From the NCBI RefSeq assembly GCF_006345805.1, contig NC_042998.1, forward strand, positions 180,048,001 through 180,112,000: a stretch of DNA of 64,000 bases. The letters are read 5' to 3'. Made by a program: the position numbers and the translations under genes. Origin of the DNA: Octopus sinensis. Lineage: Eukaryota. Of this stretch, positions 16,432 through 60,868 are shown in pieces; within the stretch, counting starts at the first letter, position 1, and each line of letters begins with the position of its first letter. The notes under the pieces were generated by a model. It was not told the DNA's origin. It ran no database searches and saw only the letters and a program-made list of their open reading frames with translations.

Positions 16432-17176
16432 AGATTTCCAAGATATAGCCCCCAGATCATCACTGATTTTCCTCCATGTTTAACATTTGGAAGAAGGTAG
16501 TCTTCTTTTGGCTGTCTCCACATGTATACTCGGTTGATGACTCATCCGAGAAAATAACATTCTTCCACTGCTCTAGGGACCAATTCTGTAGGGTTTTACT
16601 CCACGTTTGTTTTTAAAAGTAATGGTTTTCTGATTGCAGCTCTACCCTTAAGATCCGGCTTTGTGCAGCTCCCGGCGAACAATTTTTGTGGAAACTGGGT
16701 TCTCGAGGTGGTCGTTAAGCTCTGCAGTAATTTTGGGAGAGCTGTACTTTTGCGTTCCTTTCTAACAATTCGTGTAAGAGTCCGACGGCCCCTATCTGGA
16801 AATTTTGGTTTTCTTCCGGAATTTTGCTTCGAAGAGGAGCTTTTTCCCTCCTTCTCAAAGGCTGTCATTACTTTCGGGACAGCACTTCTTGATACACCAA
16901 ACATTTCGGCTGTTTTCGTTACGCTGGCGCCTGCCATATGAACACCAACAATTTGAGCTCTTTGATAGTCCGATAGATCTGTCATTTTAATGAATTGTAA
17001 TTACCTTTTCTGATGATATCTGAAAAGAAACAGCAATTTTAACAAAACATATTAAGCAATATTAATAATAAAGCAAAAAACAAAAATAAAGAAGCTTTTG
17101 ACGGTTTTATAGATATTTCAAAATTATGATGCTATGATGCTAGGTGTTTCCATTATTTTGTTTTGTCCAACCCCTG
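16432..17176 (-). mobile_element. Truncated Tc1-like transposon (5' TIR plus N-terminal transposase)
   Basis: ORF 16596-16985 (MTDLSDYQRAQIVG...SGRKPK, HTH region). TIR CAGGGGTTGGACAAAACAAAATAATGGAAACACC on the minus strand. Same family as 46958-48208. Confidence 0.9.
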
Positions 17177-17184
17177 TGTATATA

Positions 17185-17227
17185 TATCTATATCTATATC
17201 TATCTATCTATCTATCTATCTATCTAC

Positions 17228-17288
<61 letters not shown>

Positions 17289-19535: not shown

Positions 19536-19658
19536 AATGTAAAATTATATATATATGTATATAAATTAACGAAGGCAGCTATAGCAACATTAAACCAAAA
19601 AGGAAAAATTTAATTGTCATTAATTGAGAGTGAGGGTGCCGGGTAGCAAATATATACA

Positions 19659-20070
19659 AGGCGGTGAGCTGGCAGAATCGTTAGCACGCCGGACGAAATG
19701 CTTAGCGGTATTTTGTCTGTCATTACGTTCTGAGTTCAAATTCCACCGAGGTCGACTTTGCCTTTCATCCTTTCGGGGTCGATGAATTAAGTACCAGTTA
19801 TGCACTGGGGTCAATGTAATCGACTTAATCCATTTGTCTGTCCTTGTTTGTCCCCTCTATGTTTAGCCCCTTGTGGGTAATAAAGAAATAGGTATTTTGT
19901 CTGTCATTACGTTGAGTTCAAATTCCACCGAGGTCGACTTTGTCTTTCATCCTTTCGGGGTCGATAAATTAAGTACCAGTTATGCACTGGGGTCAATGTA
20001 ATCGACTAAATCCCTTTGTCTGTCCTTGTTTGTCCCCTCTATGCTTAGCTCCTTGTGGGCAATAATGAAA
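19659..20070 (+). mobile_element. Family 2 SINE with an internal ~184-bp tandem dimer
   Basis: GGCGGTGAGCTGGCAGAATCG head, B box GAGTTCAAATTCC, Nin-like GCCTTTCATCCTTTCGGGGTCGA; unit repeated from ~19892. Confidence 0.9.
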
Positions 20071-20681: not shown

Positions 20682-21305
20682 GTCAGGCTGGAAGGGAGCA
20701 AAATTTAACCGGGGAAAGTCAGTAGGATTGCGGCGCGGCACCTGGAGAAGTAAGCCCATGTCGTCCAACAGCGTCTCCATCGTAGGATGCTGGACCGACG
20801 GACCGGTTAAATTGCTCGGAGTCTGGTTCGGTCCGGACCTCCAAATGGAGAAGAACTGGGGCAAAATAACGACTGGGATGGCCACTCTCACCCAGCAATG
20901 GGTCGAGAGGAAGCTATCCCTAAAAGGTCGGGCGGAGGTGTCGAACGCGTACATCGCATCCGTCATCGAGTACCGTCTGACCGTCGTGCCTTGTCCCGAC
21001 CCTACCATCACTAGACTTGAACGCAGACTCTTCCGCTTCCTGTGGAAGGGAAGCGTTCCGATGTTTAGGCGATCCATTTGCTATCAACACCCGCTAAATG
21101 GAGGGCTAGGCATGCCGTGGTTGATGATGCGCAGATATGCGCTGAGACTGCGACATCTCCGGCGCTTCATAGACGACGGTGAACAGGTGTGGTCGCCGTT
21201 TATGCGGTGCACTTTCCCGCAGCTCGTCTCCTTGACCGAACTACAGTCGTGGATCAAACAGAGACCGAGGCTAGGCGAATTGCACCGCGAGTGTCACGTT
21301 GCCGG
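20682..21305 (+). mobile_element. L1/Tx1-clade LINE ORF2 fragment (RT thumb and downstream region)
   Basis: GC-rich island encoding LLGVWFG...NW...W..RKLSLKGRAEVSNAYIAS...FRFLWKG...GGLGMP, motifs typical of L1/Tx1 ORF2. Confidence 0.85.
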
Positions 21306-21744
21306 AAAAGAAATATTGTCGGTTATGTTTGCATGTTGTGCATTTTAAAAGGATATTAACGCTGTTATACCTTTTGTTGTAGGGTACAACATGAACGATA
21401 ACAAAAAAGAAACTTATGTCTATTTCACCACTGAAATAGGCAAGCTGAAAGTATGAGTAAAATTGTACTTTGAACGTTTTTTTACTGAGGGCATCGGGCA
21501 AGTTTCTATTTAAATTAACCATATCAATTGCTTTCTTGTCGCCAACAGTATTTCTACATTCGGCAAGTACACATATTTTAATATTATTTTCAGTTTTTAA
21601 TACATGAATTTAATTCTACCGTTACTCTTAATCAGGTGTCCCCAGGGTAATATGAAGAAAGTACTTGAATGCTTTTTGGGAGAGCTTTCTCTCTTTGCTT
21701 TCACATTGAGAAAAAGATAAATAGAGTGTAATAAAGAGTGAGAA

Positions 21745-23051: not shown

Positions 23052-23928
23052 TACTTTCAAAAAGTGTCTGACTTTTGGGAATAATAAAACAACAAATTTA
23101 TGCATTTTACAAGTTTGTTTAATCACCTTCAAAATACTCCCCTTGGGAGTTCACAAACTTCACCCAACGGTTCTACCACTGCTGGTAACACCCCTGGAAC
23201 CTCATCTCTGGAATGATATGAGGCTCCGCCGTCGCTTTTCTCATAATTTCCTCACACGACTCAAATCTGTTCCTTTTCAGCGTGGATTTCATTTTGGGGA
23301 AGAGCCAAGAGTCACACGGTGCCAAGTCGGGTGAGTAGTAAACCTGTTGAGCAAGTGGTGTATCGTTCTGGACAGGAAAGCTTGAATTATCCGACTTTAT
23401 TTTCCGCATGCACAAATCCTCCGTTGTAATGGGATGAAATGATTCTGTGCTTATTCCCACTTCGAAAGAGATATTCTGGATTCTTACATGACGAACTTTC
23501 GCAAACGGCTCCTGGTTTTGGTTTGTGGAGGCTTCCCTGAGCATTCGTCGCTCTCCACTGAAGCGCGGCCATGTTTGAAACAGTTTTGCTACCCCTTGAT
23601 CTGATTTTTACCAAGGCATCATCGACAAAGTCATGCTGAATCTTCTGGATGAAATGAGCCTGAGTTTCAGCAAGCTTTTGGCAAAACTTGATTCAATATC
23701 TCTGTTCGATACGTTCAGTGTTCTTGGATGAACACGAAAATCTGACCACCACGCAGTACATGTCTGTACTCTAGGCATAACAGCCGAGAACTGATGCGGC
23801 CTACAGTTGCGAAAGTTTTCACGTGTACACGAAAAGAATTGCATAACCTCCCAAGGAAGGGAGTTTGCTTACGTGGCATTAATTCAGGCGGGAAAATATA
23901 AAGTCATATAATTTTTTAACACACTTCG
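23052..23928 (-). mobile_element. Decayed mariner transposon
   Basis: Minus-strand YYSPDLAPCDSWLFPKMKSTLKRNRF (mariner YSPDLAPxD motif). Degenerate TIRs TTCAAAAAGTGTCTGACTTT and AAAGTCATATAATTTTTTAACACACTTCG followed by TA. Confidence 0.85.
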
Positions 23929-26176: not shown

Positions 26177-26575
26177 ATCCTTTCTACTACAGGCGCAAGG
26201 TTCGAAATTCTAAGGAAGGGGCTAGTCTATTACATCGACCCCAGTGCGTAACTGGCATTTATTTCATCGACGTCGAATGGATGAAAGGAAAAGTCGACCT
26301 CGGCTGAATTTGAACCCAGAACGTAAAGACGGAAAAAAACCCTATTTCTTTATTACCCACAAGGGGCTAAACACAGAGGGGACAAACAAGGACAGACATA
26401 GGCATTAAGTCGATTACATCGACCCAAGTGCGTAACTGGTACTTAATTTATCGACCCCGAAAGGATGAAAGGCAAAGTCGACCTCGGCGGAATTTGAACT
26501 CACAACGTAACGCAGACGAAATACCGCTAAGCATTTCGCCCGGCGTGCTAACGATTCTGCCAGTTCGCCTCCTTC
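26177..26575 (-). mobile_element. Family 2 SINE, tandem dimer
   Basis: Two copies of GATGAAAGG(A/C)AAAGTCGACCTCGGC...TTTGAAC; (TAA)n tail at the left end. Confidence 0.9.
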
Positions 26576-34778: not shown

Positions 34779-35204
34779 AAACTACCTGATAATTTCTTGT
34801 TAAGATTTCTTATTAAGATTTTATCCTTAATTGTTAAATTTGTTCCGAAGAAACACGTTTCTTACCGAAATGCAGTTCGAAAAATCCCGCCATTTACATG
34901 AATATGTGATGGATAAACATTTCCATGTGCTACGATGGAGGCGACAGTTGTCTGTTTGGTTCCGCTAGGTATGTTGGTTTTGTTTATTTTTAATATGTTC
35001 TGAATATGTTTCACTGATGAACAAAAGACGTAGATAATACGTTAATTGCGAAATCACAGGTGATCTGGAACTAAATTCTGTTTTTTAAATGTCTTGCTTC
35101 GAGAGCTGTATTCGGTACGATTCGTTTAATTTTGGTAGTAATGACTTTGAAAGTCCCTCCTAGCGTGTGGCATTTATGTGTAATAATGCCCTCTATACAA
35201 TATA

Positions 35205-35210
<6 letters not shown>
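34779..35210 (+). mobile_element. Hammerhead-bearing ~430-bp element (element C), diverged copy between (TA)n tracts
   Basis: Colinear with 55519-55876 and the reverse complement of 55097-55515; (TA)n on both sides. Confidence 0.85.
35008..35071 (+). ncRNA. Type I hammerhead ribozyme
   Basis: GTTTCA/TGGAAC stem I; CTGATGA; (A)CAA..ACGTA-GATAA-TACGT..TTG(C) stem II; GAAA; TCAC-AG-GTGA stem III; cleavage triplet ATC at 35063-35065. G10.1 is mutated to A. Confidence 0.75.
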
Positions 35211-35235
<25 letters not shown>

Positions 35236-41195: not shown

Positions 41196-41740
41196 ACTCA
41201 GAATTTGAACTCAGAACGTGGAGACGGATTAAATGCCGTTAAGTGTTTTGCCTGGTGTGCTAATGATTCTACCAGCTCACCGCCTTAATAATGATAACAA
41301 TTGATAATCCTTTCTACTATAGACATAAGGCCTGAGACTTTGGGGAAGTGGATATTCGATTACATCGATCCCGAAAGGATGAAAAACAAAGTCCACCTCG
41401 GCGGAATTTGAACTCAAAACATAGTGGCAGACGAAATACCTATTTCTTTACTACCCACAAGGGCTAAACACAGAGAGGACAAACAAGGACAGACAAACGG
41501 ATTAAGTCGATTATATCGACCTCAGTGCGTAACTGGTACTTAATTTATCGATCCCGAAAGGATGAAAGGTAAAGTCGACCTCGGCGGAATTTGAACTCAG
41601 AACGCAACGGCAGACGAAATACGGCTACGCATTTCGCCCGGCGTGCTAACGATTCTGCCAGATGGCCGCTTAATAATAAAAATAATAATTATTATTTCTA
41701 TTCTAGGCACTAATCCTTGAAAATTTAGGGGGAAGGATGC

Positions 41741-46260: not shown

Positions 46261-46892
46261 ACGTACTACATTGCATTTTATCAGTCTAAACAATCTACAA
46301 CCTTTATTATACGCAGATATATTCGGATTTGTGTCATATTATCGACGCAACCTTTTAGCCATTGTACACTCCGACTTTATTCGGATAAGTGAATTCTAAA
46401 ATATTCTCGGAATTTCAAACTGAATCCTTAATTAAATGAACGGGGGTAAATTATTCTCGTTTCGTTATCCTACCAGGGAGATTCATATATTTGTTAATTT
46501 ACTTGTGAGTTTACTTACTTTTACCTCTTGAACCAAAATGTATATTTTCTGACCAAACCAGCGACTGAACTCACGCCCACGAGATAAACTACGACACTTG
46601 ACGCATAATGACTGCTTATATACGCAGTCCTATTAGCCCGTAGAACAATTAAGTAATGGGATAGTGAGCATAGGCGTTGATTAGGTGTCAAGTGCTAAGT
46701 GTTAAGTGTTAAGTAGTTTTAGTGGGCGTGAAAACATTAGTCAAAATATATCAGCGTATATAATAATGTTAATTCTTTCAATTTCAGACACTTATGTTGT
46801 GAATATGATTATATAAGTTTGTATTAGGAGTTTATATTTAATAGCTACTGCGGCAGAAAAACTAGACAAACAAATAGAATAAAGAGAAAGAA

Positions 46893-46937
<45 letters not shown>

Positions 46938-46957
46938 ACAGACAGACAGAGAATATA

Positions 46958-48208
46958 CATGGGTTGGACAAAATAATGGAAACACCTGGCATCATAGCAT
47001 CATAATTTTGAAATATCTATAAAACCGTCAAAGCTTGTTTATTTTTGTTTTTTGATTTATCATTAATTTTGCTTCATATGTTTTGCTAAAATTGCTGTAT
47101 CTTTTCAGATATCACCAGAAAAAGGTAATTAAAATTCATTAAAATGACAGATCTATCGGAGTTTCAAAGTGATCAAAATTGTTGGTGCTCGTATGGCAGC
47201 CGCTAGCGTAACGAAAAAAGCCGTAATGTTTGGTGTATCAAGATGTACTGTCTCGAAAGTAATGACAGCCTTTGAGAAAGAGGGAAAAATCTCCTCCTGG
47301 AAACAAAACTGCGGAAGAAAACCAAAACTTTCAGATAGGGACCGTCGGACTCTTACGCGAATTATTAGAAAGGATCACAAAAGTACAGTTCCCAAAATTA
47401 CTGCAAGGCTTAATGATCACCTCGAGAACCCAGTTTCCACAAAAGCTGTTCGCCGGGAGCTGCACAAAGCCGGATTTCATGGGAGGTATGCAATCAGAAA
47501 ACCACTGCTATCAAAAACAAATGTTGCAAAGCGTTTACAGTGGAGTAGAAACCTACAGAATTGGTCCCTAGAGCAGTGGAAGAATATTATTTTCTCGGAC
47601 GAGTCATTCTTCACTTTATTTCCGACCATCGGCTTATTATACACAGCCAAAAGAAGCATTTGACCCAGGCTGCCTTCTCCCAACTGGAGGAAGATCTGTG
47701 ATGATCTGGGGGGAGGGGCTGTATCTGGGAAATCCGCCGTCTCAATGCTTTACCTTCATGGCAGAATTAATAGTCAAGATTATTTAAGAATTTTATCTGA
47801 TCAAATTCATCCTATGGTTGCGGAACTGTTTCCAGAGGGAAATGCAATCTTTTAGGATGACAATGCACCAATTCACACAGCTAAAGTTGTAATTGAATAG
47901 CACAAAGAACATTCTTGTAAAGTTGAACATCTTATCTGGCCACCACAGTCCCCAGATCTCAATATTATTGAATCTTTATGGTGCATTTTAGAAAAACGAG
48001 TAAGGAGTCGATATCTTCCACCATCATCACTACATGAACTGGAGACTGTTTTAGCTGAAGAATGCACAAAATTCCTTTGGAAACAATTCAAACTTTGTAC
48101 GAGTCCATACCTTGTAGAATTCAAGCTGTAATTACTGCCAAAGGCGGTCCTACTCCATATTAAAATAAATTTGTTTTAATGTGTTTCCATTATTTTGTCC
48201 TACTCCTG
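46958..48208 (+). mobile_element. Near full-length Tc1-like DNA transposon (~1.25 kb)
   Basis: TIRs CATGGGTTGGACAAAATAATGGAAACAC / GTGTTTCCATTATTTTGTCCTACTCCTG with a TA TSD on both sides. Confidence 0.95.
47144..48163 (+). pseudogene. Tc1 transposase pseudogene
   Basis: ATG at 47144; CGRKPKLSDRDRR, WKNIIFSDES, F*DDNAPIH, WPPQSPDLNIIESLW, AKGGPTPY*; frameshifts and stops. Confidence 0.9.
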
Positions 48209-54245: not shown

Positions 54246-55225
54246 CATACATACATACATACATGCATACATACATATTAAAAGGAAAGCATACAAAAAA
54301 TCATATATTTAAAATGTATTGAATTCTAGACATACTGCTAAAATTTCAGACAATTTGGATGAAAGTTGTTCACGTGGTTAGGTGATGAAATGATGTCAAA
54401 ATTTTTGGGACTATGTTCTTTTTTTGTGCATGTGATTTGCAGATGTCTTAAGATGTCGTCACGGTACTACCTCCCTGTGCGGCACGATGTTCTTGCTAAA
54501 ACAATTTACAATGCCATCCGCTAAAAAACTGTCCTGAAATTAACTTAGAAAACCATCTGCTATGGAAGACATTCATAAGCACCAACTCAAGGAATACTGG
54601 TGGTATATTCCCATCAAACCTTCTGTCAAATTTAAGCGTAACAGGGCGGATATTTTTGTTTGGGGCAGAGCGGCAAAGGTATGTACCATCATAGAGGTCA
54701 GCTGCCCTGCAGATATAAATATCTCTTTGAAAATGAAAGAAAAAGAGAATAACTATGAACAACCGCTTCGAAACCTCCAGCTTCTATATCTAGACTATGA
54801 ATCCATAGGCGTAGGAGTGGCTGTGTGGTAAGTAGTTTGCTTAACAACTACATGATTCTGGGTTCAAGGCGTGGCTCCTTGGGGATGTGTCTCCTACTAT
54901 AGCCTCAGGCCAACCAAAGCCTTGTGAGTAGATTTGGTAGTCTGAAACTGAAAGAAGCCCGTCGTATATATATATTTAACAATTAAGGATAACTTCTTAA
55001 TAAGGAATCTTAACAAGAAATTATCAGGTAGTTAGCGTGAAAAACCTCATAAGAGAAAAATTTGAGTTTAATTTTTTTCTTTTGAACATATTAATTTATA
55101 TTATATAGAGGGCATTATTACACATAAATGCCTCACACTAAGAGGGACATAAGTCATTACTACCAAAATTTCACTAATCATACCCAATGTAGTTTTTCAA
55201 AGCAAGAGATTTAAAAAATGAATTT

Positions 55226-55292
55226 AGTCCTATATCACCTGTGATTTCGCACTTACCGCATAAAAAATGCGTCTATACTCATCGGTAGAACT
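55226..55292 (-). ncRNA. Type I hammerhead ribozyme (CCGAUGA core variant)
   Basis: Reverse complement reads AGTTCTA-CCGATGA-GTAT..CGCAT..ATGCG..GTGC-GAAA-TCACAGGTGA-TA-TAGGACT. Confidence 0.7.
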
Positions 55293-55681
55293 GATTCTGA
55301 ACACATCATAAATAAACGACCAACACTGGCGAAGTCGAACAGGCAACTGCTCTCTCCGGCGAAGCACATGGAGATGTTTATAAATCATATATTCGGTAAA
55401 TGGCGGGCTTTTTCGAACTGCATTTCGGATAGGAAAAGTTTTTTCGGAATAAATTTAACAATTAAGGATAACTTCTTAATAAGGAATCTTAACAAGAAAT
55501 TATCAGGTAGTTAGCATGAATTTATTCCGTAAAAACTTTTCCTACTCGAAATGAAGTTCGAAAAAGCCCGCCATTTACCGAATATATGATTTATAAACAT
55601 CTCCATGTGCTTCGCCGGAGAGAGCAGTTGCCTGTTCGACTTCGCCAGTGTTGGTCGTTTATTTATGATGTGTTCAGAATC

Positions 55682-55748
55682 AGTTCTACCGATGAGCATA
55701 GACGCATTTTTTATGCGGTAAGTGCGAAATCACAGGTGATATAGGACT
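55682..55748 (+). ncRNA. Type I hammerhead ribozyme (CCGAUGA core variant)
   Basis: AGTTCTA/TAGGACT stem I (7 bp), CCGATGA, GCAT/GTGC stem II with inner CGCAT/ATGCG, GAAA, TCAC-AG-GTGA stem III, triplet ATA (predicted cleavage after 55741). Confidence 0.75.
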
Positions 55749-55866
55749 AAATTCATTTTTTAAATGTCTTGCTTTGAAAAACTGCATTGGGTATGATTAG
55801 TGAAATTTTGGTAGTAATGACTTATGTCCCTCTTAGTGTGAGGCATTTATGTGTAATAATGCCCTC

Positions 55867-55934
<68 letters not shown>

Positions 55935-60111: not shown

Positions 60112-60289
60112 TATATATATATATATATATACCCGCATAATGCGTGTTGAGCAGTAGCTATAAGGGTTTGTAACTGAGTAACTCTCAGCAGTGGTGGTTA
60201 GAAAAGGGTTGCTGATGTTGATGGTTGCTGTTGTTGTTTCTGATATTGCCCATCTCCTCTTTAAGTCAATATTGATCGAACTGTAATGC

Positions 60290-60868
60290 AGTTAGCTGGG
60301 AGAATCGTTAGCACGCCGGCAAAATGCTTAGCGATATTTCGTCTACATTTACGTTCCGAATTCAAATTCCGAAGAGGTCGACTTTGTCTTTCATCCTTTC
60401 GGGGTCGATTAAATAAGTACCAGTTACGCACTGGGGTCGATGTAATCGACTTAATCCGTTTGTCTATCCTTGTTTGTCCTCTCTATGTTTAGCCCCTTGT
60501 AAGTAGTAAAGAAATATGTATTTCGTCTGCGGCTATGTTCCGGGTTCAGATTCCGCCAAGGTCAACTTTGCCTTTCATCCTTTCGAGGTCGATTAAATAA
60601 GTACCAGTTACGCACTGGGGTCGATAGAATCGACTTAATCCGTTTGTCTGACCGTATTTGTCCCCTCTGTGTGTAGCCCCTTGTGGGCAGTAAGGAAATA
60701 GGTATTTCGTCTATCTTTATGTTCTGAGTTCAAATTCCGCCGAGGTCGACTTTGCCTTTCATCTTTTTGGGGGTCGATAAATTAAGTACCAGTTGCGTGC
60801 TAGGGTCGATGTAATCAACTGTACCCCCTGCCCTAAAATTTCGGGCCTTGTGCATAGAGTAGACAATA
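60290..60868 (+). mobile_element. Family 2 SINE with an internal ~184-bp tandem trimer
   Basis: TATTTCGTCT unit starts at ~60335, ~60519 and ~60703. Confidence 0.9.

Follow-up and report, generated by a model that had tools for sequence, protein, structure and literature searches.

Hammerhead ribozymes resembling the one described here have been reported in metazoan retrozymes, in Penelope-like elements (PLEs) and in repeats of the newt type, and these systems differ in the length of helix III. In the portions available of the work on retrozymes, invertebrate elements with a helix III of 2 bp cleave as single motifs, and the dimer-dependent amphibian motif has a helix III of 1 bp (PMC7229834). 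The combination of a palindromic loop with a dimer reading has already been published (PMC4209133; PMC3088659, legend of Fig. S8; excerpts of both), and, as a caution, the available text of a recent study reports no in vitro cleavage for 8 of 9 retrozyme dimers predicted in Xenopus (bioRxiv 10.64898/2026.07.22.740005). The accessible sections on PLEs describe 5' truncation, inversion and a one-sided tail (PMC8557442), as well as two internal reverse transcriptase (RT) start sites and AT-rich targets (PMC11167929).

Here, we analyzed a 64,000-nt stretch of the Octopus sinensis genome (the window), which carries two insertions of a ~480-bp element, one solo and one head-to-head. The reading that we favor, with a probability of about 0.7 and on the basis of sequence comparison and modeled folds, is that of a type I hammerhead whose structure has been kept within a non-coding ~480-bp mobile element, likely copied by a PLE RT and likely cleaving best as a double hammerhead. 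The features of the window on which the analysis rests are the following.

34780-35213, plus strand: solo, less-than-unit copy of subfamily A, ~435 bp, with (TA)n on both sides; its 3' terminus is the short fixed one, at ~+147 relative to the cleavage site
35002-35078, plus strand: type I hammerhead motif with a distal stem I extension, GAAU (35002-35005) and AUUC (35075-35078), past the internal loop
35008-35013, plus strand: 5' strand of stem I, GTTTCA, pairing with TGGAAC (35066-35071); two-sided changes in 6 of 6 pairs
35014-35020, plus strand: catalytic core C3-A9, CUGAUGA, whose partner in the predicted monomer fold (off state) is the helix III strand
35021-35049, plus strand: long stem II, consisting of an A10.1.C11.1 mismatch (35021/35049), 3 bp, a 2x2 internal loop, 6 bp and a 5-nt loop
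35022-35024 and 35046-35048, plus strand: the 3-bp part of stem II, CAA and TTG
35050-35065, plus strand: GAAA (35050-35053), the near-palindromic helix III AUCAC-AG-GUGAU and C17; cleavage predicted between 35065 and 35066
54974-55512, minus strand: subfamily B arm of the head-to-head insertion, a full unit plus ~60 nt of terminal redundancy, whose long fixed 3' end adjoins (TA)n
55227-55291, minus strand: third hammerhead motif, with a CCGAUGA core
55467-55886, plus strand: second subfamily B arm, with the short fixed 3' end followed by (TA)n
55683-55747, plus strand: subfamily B hammerhead motif with a U4C core, G10.1-C11.1 and an AUA triplet

The bases of the hammerhead core (C3 U4 G5 A6 N7 G8 A9, then G12 A13 A14 A15.1, and U16.1 H17) are present at 35014-35020, 35050-35053 and 35064-35065. 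Three helices surround this core, stem I is the open one, and the arrangement is supported by covariation, as in a type I hammerhead. Helix III (TCAC-AG-GTGA) occupies 35054-35063 and the cleavage triplet ATC 35063-35065; U16.1 is followed by C17 (35065), and the standard hammerhead rule places the predicted cleavage site between 35065 and 35066. All pairings listed in the original prediction (stem I, CAA/TTG, the inner stem), as well as the CTGATGA core and the ATC triplet, were found in the sequence, but two stems had been drawn too short. Indeed, the inner stem, given as CGTA/TACG, extends to 6 bp (GACGUA/UACGUU), and stem I, 6 bp as proposed, resumes beyond an internal loop as GAAU/AUUC. 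The Rfam hammerhead models gave no match at the gathering score in the 64-kb window and none at an E of ≤10 in five loci; the probable reason is the length of stem II, 29 nt.

The solo copy and the head-to-head pair (54974-55886) are about 78-81% alike in a self-comparison of the window. The plus-strand motif of this pair carries the CCGATGA core and ATA triplet attributed to it, and the motif on the minus strand had been overlooked. Changes between 35008-35071 and 55683-55747 were said to preserve the fold. This is true of three two-sided changes (stem I C-G to U-A, stem II A-U to U.G, inner stem U-A to C-G), but one broken pair (A-U to A.G in 55683-55747) had been left out; two further changes, in or near stem I, are one-sided. 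Similarly, GAAATCACAGGTGAT, described as invariant, is constant within these two subfamilies, but its center varies (AG, AT, TG, TA, AA or a single base) and related families diverge more.

At the base of stem II in 35008-35071, positions 10.1 and 11.1 form A.C and are thus unpaired. What had been taken for a mutation of this copy is shared by every copy scored, 28/28 in subfamily A and 30/30 in subfamily C, indicating that A.C is the state of the subfamily and no lesion needing repair. Across an alignment of 31 lineage representatives, hand-picked from the search lists and scored at 20 named pairs, no stem position varies more than 10.1-11.1 (GC in 15, GU in 4, AU in 1, other in 11), with a standard pair in 20/31. 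U4C is found in subfamily B and in several older lineages. Natural hammerheads with U4C and with U10.1.U11.1 are on record in the accessible part of PMC3088659, as is a natural U.U mismatch at 10.1-11.1 in that of PMC7229834; a paired 10.1-11.1 is therefore a typical rather than a strict feature of hammerheads.

The same alignment, in which the constancy of the core and of helix III is partly imposed by the search patterns, allowed the pairing to be assessed. Overall, 93.1% of the cells were paired, compared to 82.0% ± 0.8% in shuffles (reached in 0/500) and 22 to 44% when the structure was slid along the alignment. Of the 16 pairs that lie outside helix III, 13 showed two-sided changes, and RNAalifold recovered the hammerhead without prompting; the count of extra pair types was not above that of the shuffles (239/500). 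Because relatedness inflates covariation counts, we inferred a tree of 30 rows from the flanking sequence alone (G9 was dropped for its non-homologous flanks and some flanks were masked). On this tree, 18.6 same-branch double changes were counted, compared to 4.0 ± 1.9 when the stem columns were re-paired (0/2000); an earlier re-pairing null, with 0.2 expected, was biased and was replaced by this one. Double changes starting from a pair restored pairing in 17.6/17.6, compared to 8.4 expected from the substitution spectrum of the flanks. Furthermore, loops changed about twice as often as stems. In many of the one-sided changes, the product is G.U on this strand but not on the other, which points to RNA. 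In an R-scape-like test, three pairs reached an E of <0.05 within the 20 proposed, but none did so over all 3,081 pairs (best E, 0.12), and some unrelated column pairs scored level with the third significant one. Among the copy-level changes that followed insertion in subfamily A (2 of 30 copies left out of the count), 5/7 break a pair. Selection on RNA structure in the subfamily masters, as originally proposed, is thus supported by the tree-aware excess of double changes, by pairing above shuffles and by RNAalifold.

Two observations concern the surroundings of the ribozyme. Stem positions show 2.75 changes per column, compared to 1.95 in the flanking unit sequence, and yet remain paired. The flanks show unusual conservation and may contain more structure, including a near-palindromic segment at the long 3' end.

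In the 2.72-Gb genome, the core-plus-helix-III pattern gave 1,006 matches, compared to 2 for a reversed control; genome-wide, exact patterns gave 2,135 (control, 145), a pattern without the innermost C gave 711 (control, 40), and three subfamily probes returned 868, 1,339 and 880 first-look candidates, of which 40 were scored per probe. Tallies of copies in which loci overlapped were left aside. An array in subfamily D contains 14 motifs at a spacing of 475 to 478 bp; its units are 99.6% alike, with 33% GC and a longest sense ATG open reading frame (ORF) of 41 codons. Subfamily C has two-unit copies, and neither insertion in the window has a same-strand partner. The element thus has the attributes of a retrozyme, namely, non-coding, low-GC tandem units that each carry a type I hammerhead, with no long terminal repeat (LTR) or ORF. 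Additionally, a helix III of the form GAAAUCA-n-UGAU together with a long stem II recurs in several families with unrelated flanks (loci L217-L240 and L104-L127), delineating a wider superfamily. The window holds other repeats as well. A broken C-terminal fragment at 54450-54800, presumably from a non-LTR retrotransposon with a restriction-like endonuclease, was assigned by RHD and PD..EVSC motifs, and SINE-like units of ~182 bp form short tandems at 19658-20070, 26223-26574, 41364-41669 and 60285-60820. Judging by their motifs, we take 16537-17274 and 46863-47660, 23176-23607, and 20683-21345 to be Tc1/mariner-like transposase fragments and a LINE RT fragment.

Cleavage as a dimer had been suggested on the grounds of a 2-nt loop and of a stem III as weak as that of the newt motif. 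This comparison does not hold: rather than being too short (1 to 2 bp), helix III of 35008-35071 can form 4 bp and a tetraloop in the monomer, compared to 1 bp in the dimer-dependent amphibian motif as given in the available part of PMC7229834. Since such a hairpin can form, and since retrozymes with 2 bp cleave singly, the loop argument is weak. The proposal itself is nevertheless plausible for other reasons, namely, covariation of the palindrome and folding. Helix III and loop 3 are together self-complementary, as in a double hammerhead. Among 395 motifs of related families with two A/T bases at the center of loop 3, genome-wide, TA was found in 207, AT in 170 and AA/TT in 18, counts in which copies are non-independent and few families dominate, though several distinct families carry each center. 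These families are relatives of A and B, whose own center, AG, is not complementary. Other palindromic centers are CG, TCGA, TTAA, CATG and CTAG, and the families found when the innermost C was forbidden again have a self-complementary center. Because the bases of a palindromic center are unable to pair inside one hairpin, they lend support to a dimer.

The predicted folds go in the same direction. For the monomer, a fold with the core paired to helix III is favored over the hammerhead, by 2.1 kcal/mol in A and by 3.3 kcal/mol in B. The hammerhead is the minimum free energy (MFE) structure of the monomer in 2/21 representatives, and with two strands and no constraint, the MFE structure is the double hammerhead in 14/21, including both window copies; 10 G-type rows, whose bulged stem I breaks the fixed constraint, were left out of the two-strand set. 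When all 256 loops were folded, the double hammerhead was obtained in 29/64 with the innermost pair versus 4/192 without it for A, 37/64 versus 18/192 for B, and 54/64 versus 22/192 for C. Nearest-neighbor models penalize three-way junctions and ignore tertiary contacts, and hence the off state of the monomer may be overstated. Overall, we lean toward cleavage mainly as a dimer. More tentatively, the number of copies could act as a switch: a single unit or circle would lock the core on helix III, tandem transcripts would flip to the double hammerhead, and the swaps of the loop 3 center (TA, AT, CG, TCGA, TTAA, CATG) would represent direct evolutionary evidence of selection on inter-copy pairing, even with a long helix III.

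The alternative that survives best keeps the same element but has the ribozyme act mainly as a monomer, the 4-bp helix III, its tetraloop and contacts between loops 1 and 2 being enough and the palindrome a relic or an optional boost. In agreement with this, helix III is longer than in the singly cleaving invertebrate retrozymes, which have 2 bp (accessible text of PMC7229834), the internal loops of stems I and II are positionally conserved, the hammerhead is the monomer MFE in subfamily C and H3, and the AG center varies freely in the family of A and B (4.5 steps per column). However, helix III alone has a predicted stability of 0.0 kcal/mol as a hairpin versus -11.2 kcal/mol as a duplex, lineages with a single central base keep a fifth pair that is unclosable in a monomer, and related families switch among palindromic centers. 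We consider mainly monomeric cleavage rather unlikely.

Regarding the mode of insertion, 3' ends were mapped in 89 copies (1 of 30 C loci left out): relative to the cleavage site, 47 lie between +133 and +150 and 30 between +238 and +262, so that 77/89 copies stop at either fixed 3' end, nearly all adjoining (TA)n, while 4/89 continue into another unit and 8/89 end elsewhere. The tail, i.e., the distance between the two fixed ends, is ~110 nt, compared to the usual 30 to 40. About half of the copies have an inverted partner (50/89 by eye, both arms being counted for some insertions), usually with the short 3' end on one arm and the long one on the other. The 5' ends are scattered, with no clustering at the cleavage site among the 89 copies, although the primary matches could not have revealed such ends because they had to span the ribozyme; among upstream partial repeats, one only (L037) begins at this site. 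The long tail and the lack of such clustering count against the favored reading. Upstream partial repeats often begin at ~+55 to +62 from the cleavage site (L062, L072, L074, L083-L085 and others), which may possibly represent a preferred 5' end or a stop site.

Fixed 3' ends, an optional tail, 5' truncation, partial tandems, 5' inversions and (TA)n targets together are what a non-autonomous PLE would leave. By analogy, the ends and inversions match the PLE arrangement, for which the available text of the work cited above invokes AT-rich targets and a pair of internal sites at which the RT starts. Judged from sequence, the anatomy is that of a Penelope-mobilized non-LTR retrozyme. The genome contains an abundant PLE family with near-intact frames of 1,044 to 1,120 aa and long inverted duplications (L161, L162; G000:C29:2.28 Mb, C15:63.65 Mb), in which a same-sense degenerate hammerhead-like string overlaps the stop codon. 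We take these frames to carry RT and C-terminal GIY-YIG motifs; a Pfam search with a 283-aa piece of the protein gave no match.

This anatomy would also be expected if the units were detached pseudo-LTRs of an autonomous PLE instead of a self-standing non-autonomous family, and the long stem II and palindromic helix III do resemble PLE hammerheads (as described in the accessible part of PMC4209133). In the two PLE families that the comparison covered, no significant sequence common to the unit and an autonomous PLE was found (best E, 0.07 and 0.013), a result that counts against the favored reading; a 25-nt antisense likeness (E of 0.07 to 0.25) was dismissed as chance. As to a pseudo-LTR origin, what speaks against it is that head-to-tail arrays of up to 14 pure non-coding units exist, and the element loci fetched do not run into a PLE ORF (tblastn, two PLE queries), except for the two loci from which the queries came and two weak matches. 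A pseudo-LTR origin is thus improbable.

We regard as equally improbable that the fold persists because it serves the PLE protein as a signal for binding or folding, with little cleavage or cleavage only with protein assistance. According to the available sections of PMC11167929, the hammerhead of an anole PLE needs protein for cleavage and can be dispensed with for insertion in vitro. The 5' ends of the octopus copies do not map to the cleavage site, and successful subfamilies carry U4C, A10.1.C11.1 or U10.1.U11.1, expected to lower activity (PMC3088659, in part). The catalytic bases argue against a mere signal. They are kept, with 0.5 steps per column on the flank-only tree versus 9.0 for N7 and 5.0 for H17, the core being partly fixed by the search, and N7 and H17 vary exactly within the cleavage rules (H17 is A or C in 31/31 representatives). 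Contigs from three runs guessed to be RNA and from one other cover the unit; no run is recorded as RNA, and contigs cannot show transcription, ends or circles. Finally, few lineages and the lack of a significant pair over all column pairs would suit pair changes arising as a by-product of shared ancestry or DNA hairpins, but the tree-aware excess of double changes and the strand-specific G.U pairs argue against it, leaving this explanation with hardly any credibility.

In the mechanism that we propose for a PLE-copied element cleaving best as a double hammerhead, tandem arrays would be transcribed into multimers, in which AUCAC-AG-GUGAU would mediate pairing of neighboring ribozymes; cleavage after AUH would then liberate units of ~480 nt. 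These may be circularized, and such circles would stay uncut. A lone unit would likewise remain largely uncut, as its core is predicted to be paired to helix III. A borrowed PLE RT/GIY-YIG protein would then start copying at AT-rich targets by priming from one or the other of two fixed sites (about +145 and +255), which would yield 5'-truncated, often inverted and sometimes more-than-unit copies, and selection would act on few source loci. The solo copy at 34780-35213, which has no cis partner, probably represents a dead end and still agrees with the master of its subfamily.

The comparison with known systems rests on the available parts of the papers concerned. Like the metazoan non-LTR retrozymes of coral, mussel and axolotl (Cervera and de la Pena 2020, PMC7229834; Li, Clavereau, Pollet 2026, bioRxiv 10.64898/2026.07.22.740005), the octopus element consists of non-coding, low-GC tandem units with a type I hammerhead, has many solo copies and shares its genome with PLEs. 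Its unit of ~480 bp compares with 170 to 400 nt (PMC7229834) or 51 to 972 (bioRxiv 10.64898/2026.07.22.740005). However, its helix III has 4 to 5 bp instead of 1 to 2, it adds a long stem II with an internal loop, and the retrozymes are set apart by circular RNA and cleavage, whereas the octopus element is known from sequence alone. With PLE hammerheads (PMC4209133), it shares a large helix II, a palindromic helix III and loop 3, a proposed activity as dimers, many families per genome with compensatory changes, and opposite-strand pairs 100 to 700 bp apart. Those motifs, in contrast, are minimal: there is little of helix III, and G10.1-C11.1 is highly conserved, whereas the octopus element has a complete helix III, a variable 10.1-11.1 (GC, GU, AU, AC, UU) and no ORF attached. 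The double hammerheads of newt satellite 2 and similar repeats (PMC7229834; PMC3088659, legend of Fig. S8) also have a self-complementary helix III and loop 3 forming an inter-copy duplex of 10 to 12 bp, but their helix III is a single pair, while the predicted block of the octopus monomer is an alternative core pairing and not a missing helix III. A literature search for a cephalopod hammerhead, within openly accessible article text, found no paper describing this family. Because its subfamilies differ at U4/C4, at 10.1-11.1 and at the palindrome center, the family could serve as a natural-variant test system for monomer versus dimer cleavage and for the role of the ribozyme in Penelope-type mobilization, both still argued in the literature. 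Overall, this is a well-supported hammerhead retrozyme family, itself new, which belongs to a published class with a published dimer principle and does not constitute a new kind of system.
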